Counted from the first letter of the stretch, positions 37,400 to 55,747 are shown. The stretch: 64,000 nt of DNA from Synechococcus sp. (GCA_047285535.1 JBJBDC010000001.1:2784136-2848135), one strand, 5' to 3'. The notes: generated by a model not told the origin, from the letters alone. Numbers and translations are program-made.

Positions 37400-37669
37400 T
37401 CAGTCTTCAATCATGAATTTCTGATCACTTGGGTCTGCTTCCAGTAATTGGTCGAGAACCTGTCCCTGATCGTGATCCTTCCTGTTGCTTTCGTCTTGAG
37501 CTTGAGCAAGCAGGTTTATGGCCATTTCTTTGCGAGATCTCAAATCTTTGGCGCCTGTTTTGTGGGTAGCAATTTCGACTCTTCGACGGGCTGATGACTG
37601 ACTGATCCCAAGTTCAGTGGCTAGTTCCGCGCAGAGCCTGAGGTAGTCATGGTCCTGAATCGCGGGCAT
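37400..37669 (-). CDS. Hypothetical protein
   Basis: ATG 37669, LCAELA..LGIS...ARRRV, ends FMIED; fills the gap between convergent genes. Confidence 0.6.
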   Translation of the reverse strand: MPAIQDHDYLRLCAELATELGISQSSARRRVEIATHKTGAKDLRSRKEMAINLLAQAQDESNRKDHDQGQVLDQLLEADPSDQKFMIED

Positions 37670-38915
37670 GGCTAGAGGACAATTGCGTCTCAGTATGTTG
37701 ACCAAGGGGCAGTTTGCACAGAACTCGCTTAGCGATCGCCTCACTGCCACCAGCAGGGCCCATGCGTTGGCGGCCTCTTGTTCCCACCTGTCGTCGAAGG
37801 GACGGATCCTTCAGCAGCTGGATCAGTCGCTTGCTTAGCTCATGGCTCGATTGACATGTGAGTACAGCTCCACCCAGTAATCGACTTTGTCGTTTGGCAA
37901 ATCCCTGAGTGAATTGGGGGCCTGATCCTGGAAGTGAGAGTGCAGGGATGCCTAGCCCTACCAGTTGTTCGGTTGCTGTTCCAGCAGTTGCTATTCCCAC
38001 CTCTGCCCAGGGTGCCCAGAGGTTGAACTGTCCTGTTCCCAGCAAGATTAGTAGGTGGCCTCTCAACCAGCAGGCCCCTGCCTGTAGTGCATCACTGGGT
38101 GGTGGACTCGAACGAAAACCTTGGCGTTTGAGTTCTTCGCCAAGTTCTTTGAGAGTTGGCTGAGTGCCAAGGGCAACCAACACGGCAATTGGTCGATCGT
38201 TGGGTAAGGGGGCCAAGCTATGCATCAGCCGGCAAAAGTTCCTCTTTGCTTCCGGCATGCGGCTTCCGCAGAGAAGCAGGATGCGCCGGCAGCGTATGAG
38301 GCTAGGAGGAGCGTCAGCCTTGCTTAACCCGTCCATCATCGGGTTTCCGGGGGCTTCCGCAGCGACACCGTGCCTTCTCAGCCCTCGAGCTGTTAATCGG
38401 TCACGGGTGACAACCAAACGGCAACGTTTGCTGCGCATAAGGCACCACTCCCAGGGATCCCATTCGCTGCCCTTCAGCGCGTGGTATTTGTCACTGAGCT
38501 CTTGGCCAGGGCCGCTGCACCATGTGTAATCGCTTTTGGGAGTGCCAACGAAGCCGAATGGCCGTCCTGAACTCCAAGCCATTAGTAGAGGGAGTAGATC
38601 TCCTACTGCAAGCACGGCATCCGCTTCAGACTTGTGTTGGAGCAGGCAACGCCACTGCTGCCAAGTTAGTAGTGGCAACCCCGCGATCAAGTCAGCTAGT
38701 AGACCTCGCAGGCTTTGGTTGCTAAATCCGCCGCTGGGTAAGGGAGCGGCGGGGCCAACGCGATGTATCCACCCCTTTTCAATGGCTGCCCTGAAGCTGC
38801 CCCCGGCGCCGACGAGCGGCAGTACCGACAATCTCAGGCGCGGCCGTTGTCGGCGAAGTGCCTCGATGATCTTCAAAGCGATGAGATCTTCCCCGTGACC
38901 GTTGCTGATGAGCAA
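37647..38915 (-). CDS. Lipid-A-disaccharide synthase-related glycosyltransferase-like protein
   Basis: SNGHGED, PSGGF, GNPMMD, AGTATEQ..GLG, GPQF; start at about TTG 38915 because the longer ORF overlaps tRNA-Cys. Confidence 0.8.
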   Translation of the reverse strand: MLISNGHGEDLIALKIIEALRRQRPRLRLSVLPLVGAGGSFRAAIEKGWIHRVGPAAPLPSGGFSNQSLRGLLADLIAGLPLLTWQQWRCLLQHKSEADAVLAVGDLLPLLMAWSSGRPFGFVGTPKSDYTWCSGPGQELSDKYHALKGSEWDPWEWCLMRSKRCRLVVTRDRLTARGLRRHGVAAEAPGNPMMDGLSKADAPPSLIRCRRILLLCGSRMPEAKRNFCRLMHSLAPLPNDRPIAVLVALGTQPTLKELGEELKRQGFRSSPPPSDALQAGACWLRGHLLILLGTGQFNLWAPWAEVGIATAGTATEQLVGLGIPALSLPGSGPQFTQGFAKRQSRLLGGAVLTCQSSHELSKRLIQLLKDPSLRRQVGTRGRQRMGPAGGSEAIAKRVLCKLPLGQHTETQLSSSHARDSGP

Positions 38916-38972
38916 CAGAGAACCCGAACCCGCGCTGATACGATCCGATTGTGGAGTTGACGCTCCTTGAAT

Positions 38973-39043
38973 GGCGGCATGGCCAAGTGGTAAGGCAGAG
39001 GATTGCAAATCCTTTATCCCCAGTTCGAATCTGGGTGCCGCCT
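38973..39043 (+). tRNA. tRNA-Cys (anticodon GCA)
   Basis: GGCGGCA...TGCCGCC acceptor stem, GAGGA-TT-GCA-AA-TCCTT anticodon arm. Confidence 0.97.
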
Positions 39044-39421
39044 TCTGAAGAATTCCCCAAATGCCAGATTTCTGATGGTGTTTGGAGTATTTGTCTTGAA
39101 ACGACACTGGTGGGTAAACGGTAGGTAGCCGTCAGGTTCCTTCCAGTGTCCCAAATTCTCTTGGGAGTGAACTACATCGTCATGCTGAAAGGGGTGTCAG
39201 GGCACAAACAGACCAGTGAAGTTCCCACAGCTAGAAGGTCCTTGTTCTTTCTTTCATGACTCAATCCATTCATCTTATTTCTGAAGTCTCGTAATGAGGA
39301 GAAGGAGAAACGACGCGAATGGTGCGGTGTGTCCGCCTGAGTTATGAAGCAGGACCGCTCAAAAAAGCGAGCAACTCAAGCACTGATCAGTTCGTTGGCA
39401 ACTGCTGGTCAACACTGGAAG

Positions 39422-44980: not shown

Positions 44981-46530
44981 GCTTTCAGATTCTGCGTTCC
45001 ATCCAGGATCTTCGTCAGTGGCGTTCGGCGTCCAGAGGATCCGTGAATTTTGTGCCGACCATGGGTGGGCTCCATCAAGGTCATGCCAGATTGATTGCCG
45101 CTGCTAGTCAGCGAGAAGCGACTCGTTCAAAGACCCTGGTCAGTGTTTTTGTCAATCCACTGCAGTTTGGTCAGGACGAAGATTTTGATCAATACCCACG
45201 GACTCTCGACAACGACTGTGCTTTGGCCGAAAACTCTGGCGCCTCAGCACTCTGGTGCCCCAATGATGCACAGATTTATCCCGGCGGCTTTGCTGAATCC
45301 TGGCAGGTTCATCCCCCAAAATCACTGCAGTCCTGCCTTTGCGGGTTTGCAAGACCAGGACATTTCGATGGTGTAGCCACTGTGGTCTGCCGCCTTTTGG
45401 CTTTAGTGCAACCGCATCAACTCTTCCTTGGTGAAAAGGACTGGCAGCAATTAATTATTTTGCGTCGAATGGTGGCTGATCTTGCTTTGCCGGTTCGCGT
45501 GCGCAGTGTGGCGACCGTCAGGGATGAGGATGGCTTGGCGAGTAGCTCAAGAAATCGCTATCTCAGTGATCGGGAGCGTCAACAAGGGGTGATGTTTGCC
45601 AACACGTTGCGGGAAGCGGCGAGTTCGTTTACTCATGACAACTCCTCCTTGGATGCTCGTCAGATTTATCGTCGCCTTGAGGATGAAGGCCTCCAGGTGG
45701 ACTATGTCGAAGTCGTTGATCCATGTTCGTTGCAGCCTGCAAATCCGACCAAGGCCTCCATTAATTTGCTTGCGGCGGCTGTCCGATGTGGTCAAACCCG
45801 CTTGATCGATCATGTGTTTTTAATGGCTCGCTCTCCAATTGTTGCTATTGACGGACCTGCCGGTGCTGGGAAAAGCACAGTCACCAAAGCCTTTGCTGAG
45901 CGGTTAGGTCTTGTTTATCTCGATACTGGAGCTATGTATCGGGCTGTGACCTGGTTGGTTCAGGAGAAGGGCGTTGACCCTGTTGATTCGGCTGCAGTGG
46001 AGATTTTATTGAAAGATCTAGACGTTCAGCTTGAGCCCTTGCATCAAGGTGTGCAGGTTGTGCGTGTGAATGGTCAAGATGTCACCGAAGCGATTCGTGA
46101 TCCAAGGGTGACGGCGTCGGTGTCTGCGGTCGCAGCTCTTGGTTGTGTGCGTGCAGCGATGACCACCCAACAACAGCGCATGGGACAAGCAGGAGGTCTC
46201 GTCGCCGAGGGGCGTGACATTGGCACTGCTGTGTTCCCTGATGCCGATGTGAAGGTATTTCTTACGGCCACTTCGGAAGAGCGTGCTCGTCGCCGTGCAC
46301 GCGATTTAGAACAAAGAGGTCATCAAGTTCCTCCTTTGGCTGAACTCGAGGCGCAGATTGTGGAACGCGACCGTTTGGATAGCACTCGTGATGTCGCTCC
46401 TCTCATCAAGGCTGAGGATGCCACTGAACTCATCAGCGACGGAATGAGTATTCACGAGGTGATTGATGCTCTCGAGGATCTGTTCCGTTGTCGTGTGGCA
46501 GAAGAAGCCTGGCCTAACCCTGGCTGCTAA
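44977..46530 (+). CDS. panC/cmk: Bifunctional pantoate-beta-alanine ligase / cytidylate kinase (probable CTG start)
   Basis: VPTMGGLHQGH, GEKDWQQ, RLIDH, then IDGPAGAGKST, EGRDIG. Confidence 0.95.
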   Translation: MSFQILRSIQDLRQWRSASRGSVNFVPTMGGLHQGHARLIAAASQREATRSKTLVSVFVNPLQFGQDEDFDQYPRTLDNDCALAENSGASALWCPNDAQIYPGGFAESWQVHPPKSLQSCLCGFARPGHFDGVATVVCRLLALVQPHQLFLGEKDWQQLIILRRMVADLALPVRVRSVATVRDEDGLASSSRNRYLSDRERQQGVMFANTLREAASSFTHDNSSLDARQIYRRLEDEGLQVDYVEVVDPCSLQPANPTKASINLLAAAVRCGQTRLIDHVFLMARSPIVAIDGPAGAGKSTVTKAFAERLGLVYLDTGAMYRAVTWLVQEKGVDPVDSAAVEILLKDLDVQLEPLHQGVQVVRVNGQDVTEAIRDPRVTASVSAVAALGCVRAAMTTQQQRMGQAGGLVAEGRDIGTAVFPDADVKVFLTATSEERARRRARDLEQRGHQVPPLAELEAQIVERDRLDSTRDVAPLIKAEDATELISDGMSIHEVIDALEDLFRCRVAEEAWPNPGC

Positions 46531-47017
46531 TCAGTTTGTGATGACCTGATGGGTCTAGAAGGTCTTCTAGTAGTCCTTGGCAGGCATCCTCTAGAAGGTC
46601 GAGCACATGATCGAAGCCGTGATCTCCTCCGTAATAAGGGTCTGGAACATCCAGCTTGTCAACGTTGCGCGCGTGGCTGAGCATCGGACGTATGTTCGCT
46701 GTACTTTTTTGACCAAATTCTTTGGCCAGGCTGATGACATCTCGGAGGTTGTCCTCATCCATGGTGAGGATATGATCGAAACTCGACAGATCTTGGGGCT
46801 CGATTTGACGAGCTCGACTGGGAAGGTGAATGCCTCTTCGATTTGCAGCGGCTTGCATCCGCTGATCAGCGGGGTTGCCCACATGCCATCCCCCTGTCCC
46901 TGCAGAGTCCACGACAAAGTGATCAGTTAGTCCGAGCTCAGTAATCAAGCGAATAAACACGCCTTCTGCTGCAGGTGAACGGCAGATGTTGCCAAGGCAT
47001 ACGAATAAAATTTTCAA
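46514..47017 (-). CDS. ptpA: Low molecular weight protein-tyrosine phosphatase
   Basis: CLGNICRS, DPYYG; borders the phycobilisome region. Confidence 0.95.
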   Translation of the reverse strand: MKILFVCLGNICRSPAAEGVFIRLITELGLTDHFVVDSAGTGGWHVGNPADQRMQAAANRRGIHLPSRARQIEPQDLSSFDHILTMDEDNLRDVISLAKEFGQKSTANIRPMLSHARNVDKLDVPDPYYGGDHGFDHVLDLLEDACQGLLEDLLDPSGHHKLISSQG

Positions 47018-47063: not shown

Positions 47064-48434
47064 TCAGGACTTAAGAGTCCTGGCCAGAGCTAAATGAATG
47101 CGCAACCAAACGACAGGGTCTGACTCTGAAGTTTGAGCTATCGATAAACATTCCGAAGACTGATTGTTATTGATTTCTTCTAGGGCTAAGCAAGCGCTAT
47201 AGCGCAACCCCCAATCATCTGGTTTGGTAGCGGCCCAAGCTAGCTTTGTGAGGATGCTTTGAAGAACATCTTTCTCCGCATGCTTTTGAGATCCTATTTT
47301 TCCAAGCGCGCAGGTGGCAACGCGACGAATATTCCCTTGGCAATGATTGCCAATATCGACGCCAATTGCGTCAATCAAGGCTGCAAGGGATCGAGAATCT
47401 TCCGTTGCTGCTATGGCTTTTATGAGGCCGATTTTGATGTCCTGGTCAGATTCTGAAAAGTAAAGTTTTGAAAGACCTGAGTCAATAGAATGATGATTGG
47501 TCGCTAGAAGCTGAATCCCTAATTCTCGATCTGATAGAGAAGGGCTTTTTAGAAGATTAAAAGAATCTGATAAGTTGAATGCATTCTCAATTGGTGGACT
47601 TGTTTTGCTTATGTCTTTGGGGGATTTGTCTTTTTCGATTACTATATTTCCTGCAAAGTTTTCTCGAACTAGGTTGTCTAGTTTTTGTATGATCGCCTCC
47701 TGGTCTATGTTGAGATTGTGCAATGCTTCGTGTGAATTTTTGCTAGAGAAGAGTATGGACTTGCCCAGAATTGACTTTAGACAATGCATCTTAATGTTGT
47801 TGGGTATCTTGGCGTTTAAAATTGATTCTGTGCTGTCCATTGAGGCGATCCTTGCAAGATCAAATGCTGCAGACTGTCGTATAAAGCGATTGTCATGTCT
47901 TAAATAAGCATGTATTGCGTTTAAATAGCAAGTTTCGCTCGTATAAGAGTAAAAGTAGGAAGCTGCTGCACTGGCAATCCTTGCTGATTCAGAACTTAGA
48001 TAAGGCTTTATCTTTTCGCTGCAAGCCCATACTTTGTAAGTAGTGAGGGCTTCTATTAAGGCCTCGATAGGTTTGCCTTCAATGTTTTTGTCTATATATC
48101 TGTTCAATGCATCAATGCAGTCAGCATCCTTGAGTGCAATGAGTGCTCTTAACGTGGCTTCGTGGAGTTGGGTGTCATTGGTTTCCAATGTTTCTAACAA
48201 ATATGGTGTGCAACTACTGTCATTAATGAGTCCTAGTGATCGCGCAGCTTGTCTTCTTAAGGGATAGCCACCTGTAGATGTTTGTTCGCCGTCATCCTGA
48301 AGGCATTGAATTAAAACGTTTACAGCCGATTCGACTCTGTTTTTTCCAAGCCACCATGCAGCATGGTATCTCACTCCGGCATCATCGCTCGTTAAGGCCT
48401 TGATTGCAGATTCGGCAGAGTTGATTGCGATCAA
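47064..48434 (-). CDS. rpcG: Fused E/F-type phycocyanin alpha-84 lyase-isomerase
   Basis: CpcE-like N-half (RYHAAWWLG, GGYPLRR) fused to PecF-like C-half with NHCQGN and DWGLRY. Confidence 0.9.
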   Translation of the reverse strand: MIAINSAESAIKALTSDDAGVRYHAAWWLGKNRVESAVNVLIQCLQDDGEQTSTGGYPLRRQAARSLGLINDSSCTPYLLETLETNDTQLHEATLRALIALKDADCIDALNRYIDKNIEGKPIEALIEALTTYKVWACSEKIKPYLSSESARIASAAASYFYSYTSETCYLNAIHAYLRHDNRFIRQSAAFDLARIASMDSTESILNAKIPNNIKMHCLKSILGKSILFSSKNSHEALHNLNIDQEAIIQKLDNLVRENFAGNIVIEKDKSPKDISKTSPPIENAFNLSDSFNLLKSPSLSDRELGIQLLATNHHSIDSGLSKLYFSESDQDIKIGLIKAIAATEDSRSLAALIDAIGVDIGNHCQGNIRRVATCALGKIGSQKHAEKDVLQSILTKLAWAATKPDDWGLRYSACLALEEINNNQSSECLSIAQTSESDPVVWLRIHLALARTLKS

Positions 48435-48550: not shown

Positions 48551-49129
48551 TTAGTTCCACTTGGCTTGCCAAGAAGTGGTACGGATAAACTGGAACTTGC
48601 CTGCGATTGCTCCCCATAGTCTTTCATGTGTTTGTGGATCGTAGCCCTGATCTAGAGTGCTCAATTTATCACCTTGTAGATGGAAGGAACTTACTAAATA
48701 AGTGTTTCTACCATCACGACGAACCATGCAGTAACAACCTGGCTCGATGTAGCCATGGTATCCATCAATTTTTTCAACCACTTGGTAATGGCAGTTCTCA
48801 AGGGGGATTAAGTCATGTTCATTGATTTTTTGCCTTTGCCGTTGATCAGTTGTTGCTGTTGCGAATAACTCTGGATTTTTAAATTTGTGATTCCATAGCT
48901 TGATCACTCCTGCGGAGCTTTCTTCGGCTCTGATCATGCGTAAACGATAGGGAATTTTCGGATTTAATGCATAGCTCTGCTCAAGTAAAATTGATCCTGG
49001 TTGAAGGTGTTCTATAGGGTGGTAGCGAATGAAGATGTGAGCAAAAAATGGTGGATTATCGAGTGCTTGTTGCTGATTGTTGAATTCGCCGCACAATTGG
49101 TTGAGAAATCGTTTCAAGAAAGGTTGCAT
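48551..49129 (-). CDS. rpcT: T-type phycobiliprotein lyase
   Basis: NQQQALDNPPFFAHI, PYRLR, D.GYDP...LWG; directly after rpcA. Confidence 0.88.
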   Translation of the reverse strand: MQPFLKRFLNQLCGEFNNQQQALDNPPFFAHIFIRYHPIEHLQPGSILLEQSYALNPKIPYRLRMIRAEESSAGVIKLWNHKFKNPELFATATTDQRQRQKINEHDLIPLENCHYQVVEKIDGYHGYIEPGCYCMVRRDGRNTYLVSSFHLQGDKLSTLDQGYDPQTHERLWGAIAGKFQFIRTTSWQAKWN

Positions 49130-49149
49130 AGCATCTCGGGCTAAGGCAT

Positions 49150-49178
49150 AAAAACAGCCCCCAATAGGGGGCTGTTTT
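49150..49178 (-). terminator. Intrinsic terminator after rpcA
   Basis: AAAACAGCCCCC-AATA-GGGGGCTGTTTT inverted repeat. Confidence 0.85.
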
Positions 49179-49195
49179 ACTTGATCAATCAATGA

Positions 49196-49684
49196 TCAAG
49201 TAAGTGCGTTAATGGCGTAATCAATATAGCTGTTAGCCTCAGCAGCAGCGTCACCGCTTAAACCGTGATTAGCTTTGATATGTTTTAGAGCTTCAACATA
49301 CCAAGTAGGAGAAAGCTCGAATGTACGATTGATTTCAGCCAGGCCTGCAATGAGGTAATCATCCATTGGGCCAGTGCCTCCTGCTACCAAGCAATAGGTA
49401 ATCATCCGCAGGTAATAGCTGATATCCCTAGAGCACTTGGTTTTGCCTTCGGAGGTTGATGCGTAGTTCGGACCTTCCATCTGGGTCGTGAAAGGGAACT
49501 TGGTATAAACGGCCTGGGCTGCACCATTGACTAGTGAGTCGCCTTTTGTGGTGAGAGCTTTGGCAGCTTCAAGGCTTGCCTTGGCACGGCTGAATCGACC
49601 TGATGCACCTTGGATCTCAGTGTTGCTCAGAAAGCGTCCCTGGGAATCAGCCGCTGCAACTGCTTCAGTTAGAGGAGTTTTCAT
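49196..49684 (-). CDS. rpcA: Phycocyanin alpha subunit
   Basis: [19 protein letters not shown], Cys84 in KCSRD. Confidence 0.98.
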
Positions 49685-49729: not shown

Positions 49730-50251
49730 TCAAGCAACTGAAGCAGCTGCACGATCGAAGTAGGTTCCAATTTCGTTGGCGATGTTTGTGCAGTCTCCAG
49801 AGCTGCAATAAGTTCCAGCTTCAAGCACCATTCCGATAGCAGTTGCCTTCATCAGGTTGACCCCTTCGGCGACGGATGCGCCTGGAGTTCCAAGGGCTAG
49901 ATAAGTTTCGCGCAGGCCATTCAGGCAGCGGTCTTCCATCACGGAAGCGTCACCGGTAAAGACTGAATAGGAAACGTAGCGAAGGATGATCTCCATATCG
50001 CGCAGGCAAGCAGCCATGCGACGGGAGGTATAGGCGTTTCCTCCTGGTGCAATCAGTGCAGGTTGCTGAGCAAACAGTTCACGTGCTGCATTGGCAACGA
50101 TCGCGGAGGCATTACCGGAAATTCGGTTTACAGCATCTAAACGCTTGTTGCTTTCGGAAACAACAGCAGCAAGAGCATCAATCTCGCTAGTGCTGATGAA
50201 CTGTCCCCTGGCATCGGCCTGGGCGACAACCTTGGTGAAGGCGTCGAACAT
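49730..50251 (-). CDS. rpcB: Phycocyanin beta subunit (atypical near beta-153)
   Basis: [25 protein letters not shown]; 173 aa. Confidence 0.97.
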
Positions 50252-50464: not shown

Positions 50465-51948
<1,484 letters not shown>

Positions 51949-55303: not shown

Positions 55304-55747
55304 TTGACCATAGTCGAAACCATGACTACTTTTGTTATCTCACACAATCTACAAGTTAATTCAGAGCTTACCCCCGCGTTGTCGGGACAAGAATTGGCTT
55401 TTGGACTTGTTACTAGTTCGAAACTCTTAAAAGCTGGGGTTGCTTTGACTCATTCGCATTGGTTAATGAGGATTGAATCGGATTTGACTCCAACAGAAAT
55501 GGCAGATGAACTGATTAAAGCTTGGAGAAATTTTCGCGTTAGTCAAGGTCATGCAGTTGATCATGCATGGCTTGCACTCGGTGGACGAAAAGATACGCCA
55601 GCTATTAAAGATTCTCCTTTACAACAAGGTTATTGGGGCGTTGATCTCGTAGAATGTAGCAATCCAGATGTTTTCCTTGAGAGTATCAATTGGGATGCTC
55701 TCAAGTCAGGTCGTGAAGTTGATTCAGTTTTCGAAGTAAGAGGTTAG
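55304..55747 (+). CDS. Hypothetical protein, DUF2656-like
   Basis: FVISHNL, HSHW, LALGGRK, WGVDLVE, INW. Confidence 0.75.
   Translation: MTIVETMTTFVISHNLQVNSELTPALSGQELAFGLVTSSKLLKAGVALTHSHWLMRIESDLTPTEMADELIKAWRNFRVSQGHAVDHAWLALGGRKDTPAIKDSPLQQGYWGVDLVECSNPDVFLESINWDALKSGREVDSVFEVRG

Follow-up and report, generated by a model that had tools for sequence, protein, structure and literature searches.

A rare R-phycocyanin beta allele of marine Synechococcus with a rewritten loop and an extra cysteine at the beta-153 bilin site

In this study, a DNA stretch of 64,000 nt from Synechococcus sp. (GCA_047285535.1 JBJBDC010000001.1:2784136-2848135) was analysed; it is referred to below as the window, and all coordinates are counted from its first letter. 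The genes considered here lie in the order pebA-pebB-rpcB-rpcA-rpcT-rpcG-ptpA, with cpeBA and mpeBA located beyond pebA and pebB, upstream. The following genes were annotated.

46514..47017, minus strand: ptpA, low-molecular-weight phosphatase, closing the rod region at its 3' end (Pfam LMWPc)
47064..48434, minus strand: rpcG-like fused E/F-type lyase gene, 456 aa, with an NHCQGN motif, a CpcE-like N-terminal part and a CpcF-like C-terminal part
48551..49129, minus strand: rpcT, T-type bilin lyase of 192 aa when read from a conserved ATG (49129) (Pfam PF06206, CpeT/CpcT, 161 bits)
49196..49684, minus strand: rpcA, phycocyanin alpha subunit, 162 aa (TIGR01338, 298.7 bits)
49730..50251, minus strand: rpcB, phycocyanin beta subunit, variant allele, ORF of 173 aa (TIGR01339)
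50465-51238, minus strand: pebB, phycoerythrobilin synthesis, upstream of rpcB (NCBIfam NF009722, 463.5 bits)
51235-51945, minus strand: pebA, phycoerythrobilin synthesis (NCBIfam NF009720, 400.5 bits)

This region is the 3' end of a pigment-type-3 rod region of a marine Synechococcus. The gene order agrees with that given in the supplementary material of Grebert et al. 2022 (PMC8995045), and the use of ptpA as the boundary of the phycobilisome rod region follows the accessible text of the same authors. An earlier, first-pass annotation of this DNA had named RpcT as a neighbouring T-type lyase and RpcG as the enzyme adding PUB at alpha-84. The position of rpcB beside a T-type lyase gene, identified by the Pfam profile, was borne out, as was the presence of an RpcG-like fused E/F lyase; the latter carries NHCQGN, a motif linked to isomerase activity in the available excerpt of PMC2246261. 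Moreover, an rpcG fusion lyase with NHCQGN and rpcT both adjoin rpcBA, as in the R-phycocyanin type that bears PUB at alpha-84 together with PEB at beta-153, a likeness at the level of the genes. No extra lyase gene was found between pebB and ptpA.

The rpcB product matched the NCBIfam model of phycocyanin beta, TIGR01339, over the full length at 305.2 bits (cutoff 279.3). It contains four cysteines, Cys82, Cys109, Cys149 and Cys154, and the following features are relevant to its chromophore sites.

50006..50008, minus strand: Cys82 codon, central bilin site, unchanged (invariant column in the phycocyanin beta alignment)
49790..49792, minus strand: Cys154 codon, for the cysteine to which the beta-153 bilin is attached, with the GDC motif kept (invariant column in the alignment)
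49805..49807, minus strand: Cys149 codon TGC, the extra cysteine, aligned with a near-invariant Ile (Ile in 194/196 non-carriers)
49808..49810, minus strand: Tyr148 codon, a one-residue insertion giving 173 aa (gap in 194/196 non-carriers)
49775..49846, minus strand: residues 136-159 of RpcB, by ORF translation
49775..49831, minus strand: carrier-specific stretch, residues 141-159, comprising the rewritten G-H loop together with the beginning of helix H (alignment and AF2 model)

The length of 173 aa and the position of Cys149 five residues ahead of Cys154, both given in the first-pass annotation, are exact by ORF translation and codon coordinates. In the AF2 model of RpcB (pLDDT 81), helices 124-143 and 155-172 are joined by a loop at 144-154, for which the confidence was moderate (pLDDT 66 over residues 141-150). 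The top Foldseek matches of this model were solved phycocyanin beta chains (TM 0.74-0.83), and the predicted fold matched C- and R-phycocyanin crystal structures, such as those of Nostoc (6jpr) and Polysiphonia (1f99), with a TM of 0.74. All solved phycocyanin chains in the alignments have the ordinary loop, and none has the insertion or the extra cysteine. With a score above the profile cutoff, cysteines at beta-82 and beta-153 and a predicted globin-like phycobiliprotein fold, RpcB remains a member of phycocyanin beta; the canonical G-H loop (..ND..G-I[TS]xGDC..L.. in 172 aa), from which it departs, is a conserved feature of the family and no formal criterion, and the residues replaced are kept in 185-195 of the 196 other sequences.

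To describe the departure, an alignment of 201 phycocyanin beta sequences was used, consisting of 5 carriers of the loop and 196 non-carriers. Positions at which one residue was common to the 5 carriers and occurred in <5% of the non-carriers were confined to 141-159 (M141, L143, E144, A145, T147, Y148, C149, I157 and N159). The changes are as follows.

I141M: ordinary Ile in 162/196 non-carriers
N143L: ordinary Asn in 185/196
D144E: ordinary Asp in 192/196
x145A: variable position in non-carriers
Gly to T147: ordinary Gly in 195/196
Tyr148 inserted: gap in 194/196
Ile to Cys149: ordinary Ile in 194/196
L157I: ordinary Leu in 194/196
S159N: ordinary Ser in 187/196

Outside the loop RpcB is ordinary, with 92-97% identity to relatives when the loop is masked, in agreement with the earlier claim that the protein is otherwise typical and that the change is confined to the beta-153 bilin pocket. 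Cys149 was present in 5/5 carriers, and no cysteine was found at positions 120-153 in the non-carriers (0/196). The family consensus given in the first-pass annotation, 172 aa with a single cysteine in the loop, also proved correct: 186/196 non-carriers are 172 aa long, 190/196 have 3 cysteines in total, and their loop reads ..VNDxxG-I[TS]xGDC... Two other 173-aa forms (clusters P0024 and P0084) have a one-residue loop insertion without a cysteine. In the codon alignment, the variant loop appears as an in-frame replacement with one added codon, on which ground an origin by a pair of frameshifts was rejected. Copying from CpeB or MpeB of the window was rejected as well, the loop of the window's CpeB being unrelated.

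Family, fold, Cys82, GDC cysteine and operon layout are common to the allele and to the ordinary beta subunit of R-phycocyanin (RpcB/CpcB) in marine Synechococcus, to which it is 82-86% identical overall and 92-95% identical outside the loop. The allele differs from the ordinary subunit in having 173 instead of 172 aa, a rewritten stretch at 141-159, a fourth cysteine and a partner lyase with a distinct N-terminus. The nearest known forms are R-PC II and R-PC V, the latter associated with RpcG.

The loop was present in 2 of the best 120 homologue clusters from a search with 5458 hits in all. These were P0001 (95% identical to the RpcB of the window, 72 member sequences) and P0002 (88% identical, 34 member sequences). 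When the search was restricted to residues 128-173, at least three candidates were obtained, namely P0001, P0002 and P0121, a cluster of a 95-aa fragment with 4 members. The three carrier clusters comprise 110 member sequences, which came from ENA assemblies only; none had an NCBI or UniRef source. In species-representative genomes, the motif occurred in 1/80 genome loci among the matches listed. This locus, L001, belongs to Synechococcus sp. AG-670-A05, a clade IIIb single-cell genome of pigment type 3c or 3dB according to Table S1 of PMC8995045. A survey of this kind had been proposed in the first-pass annotation, and its outcome is that the allele is rare. The chance that the loop is a sequencing or assembly artefact, or belongs to a decaying gene, is negligible, since the frame is intact, the motif recurs in an independent genome and in all three clusters, and the synonymous differences between the window and L001 show that the copies are independent. 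The allele is a real, rare and conserved version of the R-phycocyanin beta gene, and all of its occurrences to date are in metagenomes or in cells that have not been cultured. In our literature search, no paper was found that reports an additional cysteine or a rewritten loop for the beta-153 site, and the allele was not mentioned in the available portions of Six et al. 2007 (PMC2246261) and of Grebert et al. (10.1101/2021.06.21.449213, PMC8995045).

Comparison of the window with L001 gave information on the age and constraint of the motif. Over residues 142-159, 7 synonymous and 1 non-synonymous (V142I) codon differences were counted among 18 codons, and in the rest of rpcB synonymous differences were found at 39/107, 17/28 and 8/14 codons, which is similar to the loop. 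Because synonymous divergence is similar in the loop and in the remaining codons, the motif should be as old as the split between the two genes and constrained since, and these codon comparisons indicate purifying selection on the loop motif. The possibility that the allele had recently passed from one of these two genomes to the other was rejected, the synonymous divergence of the loop (7/18 codons) being equal to that of the remainder of the gene.

The loop was common to different rpcB backbones, and the approximate limits of the transferable segment are given below.

49778..49843, minus strand: approximate transferable cassette, residues ~137-158, common to different rpcB backbones

P0002 agrees with the window at 20/24 positions in the loop (136-159) and at 132/149 masked positions, whereas it agrees with L012, a subcluster-5.3-like locus, at 143/149 masked positions and at only 9/23 in the loop. 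In a tree made with the loop masked, the four full-length carriers did not form one group, and on well-supported branches they require at least two origins. P0002 was placed inside a clade with RCC307 and MIT S9452 (98% SH-aLRT), the window and P0001 lay near CRD1-type sequences, and the placement of L001 was without resolution. Forcing the carriers into one clade gave a marginal AU result (p = 0.042, delta lnL 31.5). The rod-region DNA of the window was closest (76-91% identity) to L008 (AG-679-C18), a single-cell genome with the ordinary loop that is classified as clade I, type 3dA, in the accessible part of PMC8995045. In the 3' third of rpcB, the identity of the window to L008 drops to 55-64%, and that to L001 reaches 79-80%. 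By alignments and trees, the cassette is demonstrably present in at least two or three rpcB backbones: that of the window and P0001, which in its flanks most resembles a clade I genome, that of a clade IIIb single-cell genome, and a subcluster-5.3-like one. The occurrence of an identical 17-residue motif on different backbones is best explained by the transfer of a short recombination patch covering residues ~137-158. Recombination of rod-region genes between clades has been described (PMC8995045, available part).

The neighbouring lyase was examined in the same manner. The mechanical ORF of rpcT extends to a TTG at 49192; the ATG at 49129 was chosen by alignment with homologues, and in L001 a stop codon lies 5 codons upstream of the ATG of rpcT. 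The start of RpcT is thus probably ATG 49129. RpcT aligned to the CpcT structure 4o4o with an E value of 5e-29, and its Y61/R62 align to Y65/R66 of CpcT, which we take to be a functionally important pair. By profile and by the Tyr-Arg pair RpcT is a T-type lyase, but it represents a distinct N-terminal subtype, here called F-type.

49010..49129, minus strand: RpcT residues 1-40, the F-type N-terminal segment going with the rpcB allele (alignments and trees)

The F-type signature (..QLCGEF.., ..[FY]IRY.., ..YA[IL]..) was found in 2/2 carrier genomes (the window and L001) and in 0/11 non-carrier loci, an association that consists of two genomes which are not phylogenetically independent, with no ordinary-loop clade III genome among the loci. 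The residues that mark this signature are Q11, F16 where other sequences have Tyr, I34 instead of Leu and L/I55 instead of Val; the C-terminus is short in L001. Among RpcT clusters, the signature occurred in 7/95 (243/3765 member sequences), and none of these had an NCBI or UniRef source. Residues 1-40 of the window RpcT are 79-93% identical to the F-type and 53-84% to the clade-I type, and for residues 41-192 the relation is reversed. In the tree of residues 41-192, the window fell in a 97% set with clade-I-like sequences, and forcing it together with the F-type was rejected (AU p = 0.016). Over rpcT codons 1-35, the window differed from L001 by 8 synonymous and 3 non-synonymous changes, and from L008 by 15 synonymous and 10 non-synonymous changes. 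Judged from these alignments and trees, the RpcT of the window is a chimera of an F-type N-terminus and a clade-I-type body. The first-pass annotation had asked whether RpcT co-diverges with the loop and, as far as the available genomes allow this to be judged, it does: the rpcB allele appears to go with a matched RpcT variant. Yet the F-type RpcT might merely mark a lineage or a pigment type. Prediction of a complex of RpcB and RpcT gave a score of 0.00 in two runs without controls, which is not evidence either way.

In rpcA, which lies between the rpcB and rpcT patches, the comparison of DNA identity gave no clear carrier signal, so that a single recombination tract across both patches is not demonstrated. 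At the protein level the signal was weak: only alpha-46 (Thr) is common to carriers and rare elsewhere, and alpha-148 is off the marine consensus, the window having Ala and L001 Ser at this position. In 17 other marine sequences, alpha-148 is Thr in 14, all with Ser28, and Gly in 3, with Phe28.

The surroundings of the beta-153 bilin are known from the crystal structure of Nostoc phycocyanin (PMC6614406, available portion). According to this portion, the thioether and main-chain hydrogen bonds keep ring A in place, the loop beta146-152 masks ring B with Thr149 closest and hydrogen-bonded to a propionate, the pyrrole nitrogens are bound by Asp39, and ring D is surrounded by Phe28, Gln33 and Asp145 of the alpha chain. 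The rewritten loop corresponds to beta146-152, and because this loop covers ring B, Tyr148 and Cys149 of the variant would be placed over rings A and B, away from the ring-D vinyl. On this basis, the reading that we favour, and to which we would give about an even chance, is that the allele re-tunes a bilin that is still singly linked at Cys154, and that it needs a matched lyase N-terminus. RpcT would link a single bilin, presumably phycoerythrobilin, to Cys154; a lid in which Tyr and a thiol replace Gly and Ile would alter the geometry and polarity round rings A and B, and with them the absorption and energy transfer of this sensitising chromophore. The new loop may also alter the docking of the lyase. 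Cys149 would then serve as a packing or hydrogen-bonding residue and not as a second attachment point. RpcG presumably puts phycourobilin at alpha-84, and uncultured Synechococcus of blue water would then possess an R-phycocyanin with a shifted spectrum.

A single link is consistent with the retention of the GDC motif and of an intact T-type lyase in which the Tyr-Arg pair is kept. Moreover, there is a precedent for an apoprotein residue steering the outcome of a lyase, also in the pigment diversification of marine Synechococcus: a residue of the substrate reportedly decides whether MpeV isomerises, His141 of CpeB blocking the isomerase activity (PMC9705338, accessible excerpt). That case concerns a single residue, another subunit site and another lyase family, whereas the variant RpcB has a whole rewritten loop and a co-varying lyase. 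The allele is probably a new colour variant of light-harvesting phycocyanin.

With regard to the nature of Cys149, two observations should be recorded as points against a single link. A cysteine beside the bilin in all 5 carriers is what a second covalent bond needs, and Ile to Cys is no obvious choice for plain packing.

It is unlikely that a different bilin, such as phycourobilin, is singly linked at Cys154 by way of the remodelled pocket and the F-type RpcT. RpcT would then be a T-type lyase-isomerase, or the pocket would force the isomerisation, and an R-phycocyanin with two blue-absorbing sites would result. We know of no T-type lyase-isomerase, the changes in RpcT are conservative (Y to F, L to I, V to L/I) with the Y61/R62 pair kept, and nothing in the sequence identifies the bilin. 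On the other hand, the co-variation of the RpcT N-terminus with the loop and the presence in the genome of an RpcG of the alpha-84 lyase-isomerase type with NHCQGN would fit such an exchange, as would the pigment type of the other carrier genome (3c or 3dB; Table S1 of PMC8995045) and the settling of MpeV isomerisation by a substrate residue as reported in the excerpt of PMC9705338.

A second covalent bond between Cys149 and the same bilin, either a C18-1 link on ring D or a thiol adduct at the methine bridge (C5/C10), is improbable, even with the strict restriction of a cysteine in this segment to the carriers. The first-pass annotation had likened the variant to the doubly linked bilin of phycoerythrin beta-50/61, and in both cases a bilin has a pair of cysteines close to it. 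A PEB-type bilin, which carries a vinyl group on ring D, would be available. The analogy is nevertheless weak, since the spacing is 5 residues as against 11 for Cys50 and Cys61 in the window's own CpeB, and the site lies in another part of the fold. In addition, attachment at phycoerythrin beta-50/61 is the work of E/F-type enzymes, for instance MpeV (PMC7948978, available excerpt), and not of a T-type lyase. The loop bearing Cys149 does touch the bilin, but it lies over ring B; unlike in the beta-50/61 double link, the bilin at beta-153 has its ring D directed towards the alpha chain, and a ring-D link from Cys149 would require a large rearrangement, ring D lying among alpha-chain residues (PMC6614406, same portion). 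A methine adduct is geometrically more plausible than a ring-D link.

Such an adduct has a parallel in the DXCF or insert-Cys cyanobacteriochromes, in which a second conserved cysteine lies over the middle of a Cys-linked bilin. These proteins have an unrelated GAF fold and are photoreceptors, not antennae, and the comparison is an analogy without any claim of membership. By this analogy, Cys149 might bond the beta-153 bilin at a methine bridge that adjoins ring B, at C5 or else at C10, which we consider a long shot. To our knowledge, methine adducts have no example in phycobiliproteins, and a C10 adduct would destroy the useful absorption. If true, a C5 adduct on phycoerythrobilin would leave only rings B-C conjugated and would yield a phycourobilin-like, blue-absorbing and doubly anchored chromophore without an isomerase, and a new spectral class of R-phycocyanin would reside on a small cassette recombining between Synechococcus clades with a matched lyase N-terminus.

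There is also little probability that the allele is a surface-loop variant without a pigment role, spread by hitch-hiking drift or selected for escape from an NblA-like adaptor (of host or phage) or from a linker. In its favour are the position of the beta-153 loop at the periphery of the hexamer, the existence of the 173-aa variants without the cysteine, P0024 and P0084, and the recombination of rod-region genes between clades (PMC8995045, as above). Against this, the residues replaced (N143, D144, the Gly, the Ile and L157) are near-invariant across cyanobacteria, and the new motif is frozen across backbones despite synonymous turnover, which is unlike drift.

A redox-sensitive CxxxxC, in which a disulfide between Cys149 and Cys154 would form in the apoprotein or under oxidative stress and gate chromophorylation or quenching, is highly unlikely. 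Two cysteines five residues apart on a flexible loop would be suited to it, but Cys154 is expected to be permanently thioether-linked after the action of RpcT, the lyase gene is intact and conserved, and we know of no precedent for such a disulfide in phycobiliproteins. An extra bilin at Cys149, giving a fourth chromophore per alpha-beta monomer, is scarcely credible: phycoerythrins gained bilin sites through added cysteines and the new cysteine is conserved, but no additional lyase gene was found between pebB and ptpA. There would also be little room for it, five residues from an occupied site on a loop that packs against the bilin (PMC6614406, same portion).

The pigment diversity of marine Synechococcus decides which light colours these cells can use and hence their niches in the ocean. 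To date, lyases, lyase-isomerases and phycoerythrin sites have been identified as its source, and phycocyanin has been regarded as nearly uniform, with the forms C-PC, R-PC II, R-PC III and R-PC V. The allele reported here is a variant of the phycocyanin apoprotein itself, which rewrites one chromophore pocket and has moved between clades as a short patch. If colour or attachment chemistry is shifted by it, a further type of phycocyanin would be added to those known, and the loop would provide a compact, transplantable 'colour cassette' for phycobiliprotein engineering.

In the present study, the mechanical rpcT ORF was found to open with a TTG codon located 4 nt after the rpcA stop codon.

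48551-49192, minus strand: mechanical rpcT ORF, with start TTG at 49192

Homologues point instead to the ATG at 49129 as the true start codon. In Synechococcus sp. AG-670-A05 (L001), a clade IIIb single-cell genome and the second carrier of the rpcB allele, the ATG of rpcT is preceded, 5 codons upstream, by an in-frame stop. The RpcT of the window is a chimera, in which an N-terminal part of the F-type, seen in both carrier genomes, is joined to a remainder of the clade-I type.

49010-49129, minus strand: RpcT residues 1-40, F-type as found with the rpcB allele
48551-49009, minus strand: RpcT residues 41-192, clade-I type

The same mosaic was present in the metagenomic RpcT cluster P0122 (87% identical).

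Several other genes and ORFs were noted in the window.

45043-46530, plus strand: panC-cmk, fused pantoate-beta-alanine ligase and cytidylate kinase, 495 aa
52558-52791, minus strand: small conserved rod-region gene of unknown function, 77-aa product
55304-55747, plus strand: small conserved rod-region gene of unknown function, 147-aa DUF2656 protein
37647-39107, minus strand: ORF, ~486 aa
10688-12151, minus strand: ORF, ~486 aa

The panC-cmk gene lies immediately outside the rod region, and its 3' end overlaps the opposite-strand ptpA by 17 bases. By position, the 77-aa gene, whose product gave no family match, and the DUF2656 gene match unk13 and unk11/12, respectively, in published rod-region maps. 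The two ~486-aa ORFs had no Pfam match at E <= 0.001.

Two further phycocyanin beta clusters, P0024 and P0084, are also 173 aa long, each with one residue inserted in the loop that is rewritten in the carriers. Their loops (..GGTIGSGDCTN.. and ..GGPVGTGDCTN.., respectively) lack the extra cysteine and share with the carriers the GDCTN motif at the attachment cysteine; these forms may represent related or intermediate states of the loop.

The RpcA alignment showed Phe at alpha-28 in three marine loci (L013, L021 and L024) and Ser in the rest. At alpha-148 the window has Ala and L001 has Ser, whereas every other Ser28 marine RpcA aligned has Thr, and the Phe28 forms have Gly instead of Thr.

49241-49243, minus strand: RpcA residue 148 codon

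This residue lies three positions past alpha-Asp145, which, according to a crystal structure report (PMC6614406), forms a hydrogen bond to ring D of the beta-153 bilin next to it. The difference between the Phe28 and Ser28 forms may track PCB versus PEB at beta-153.
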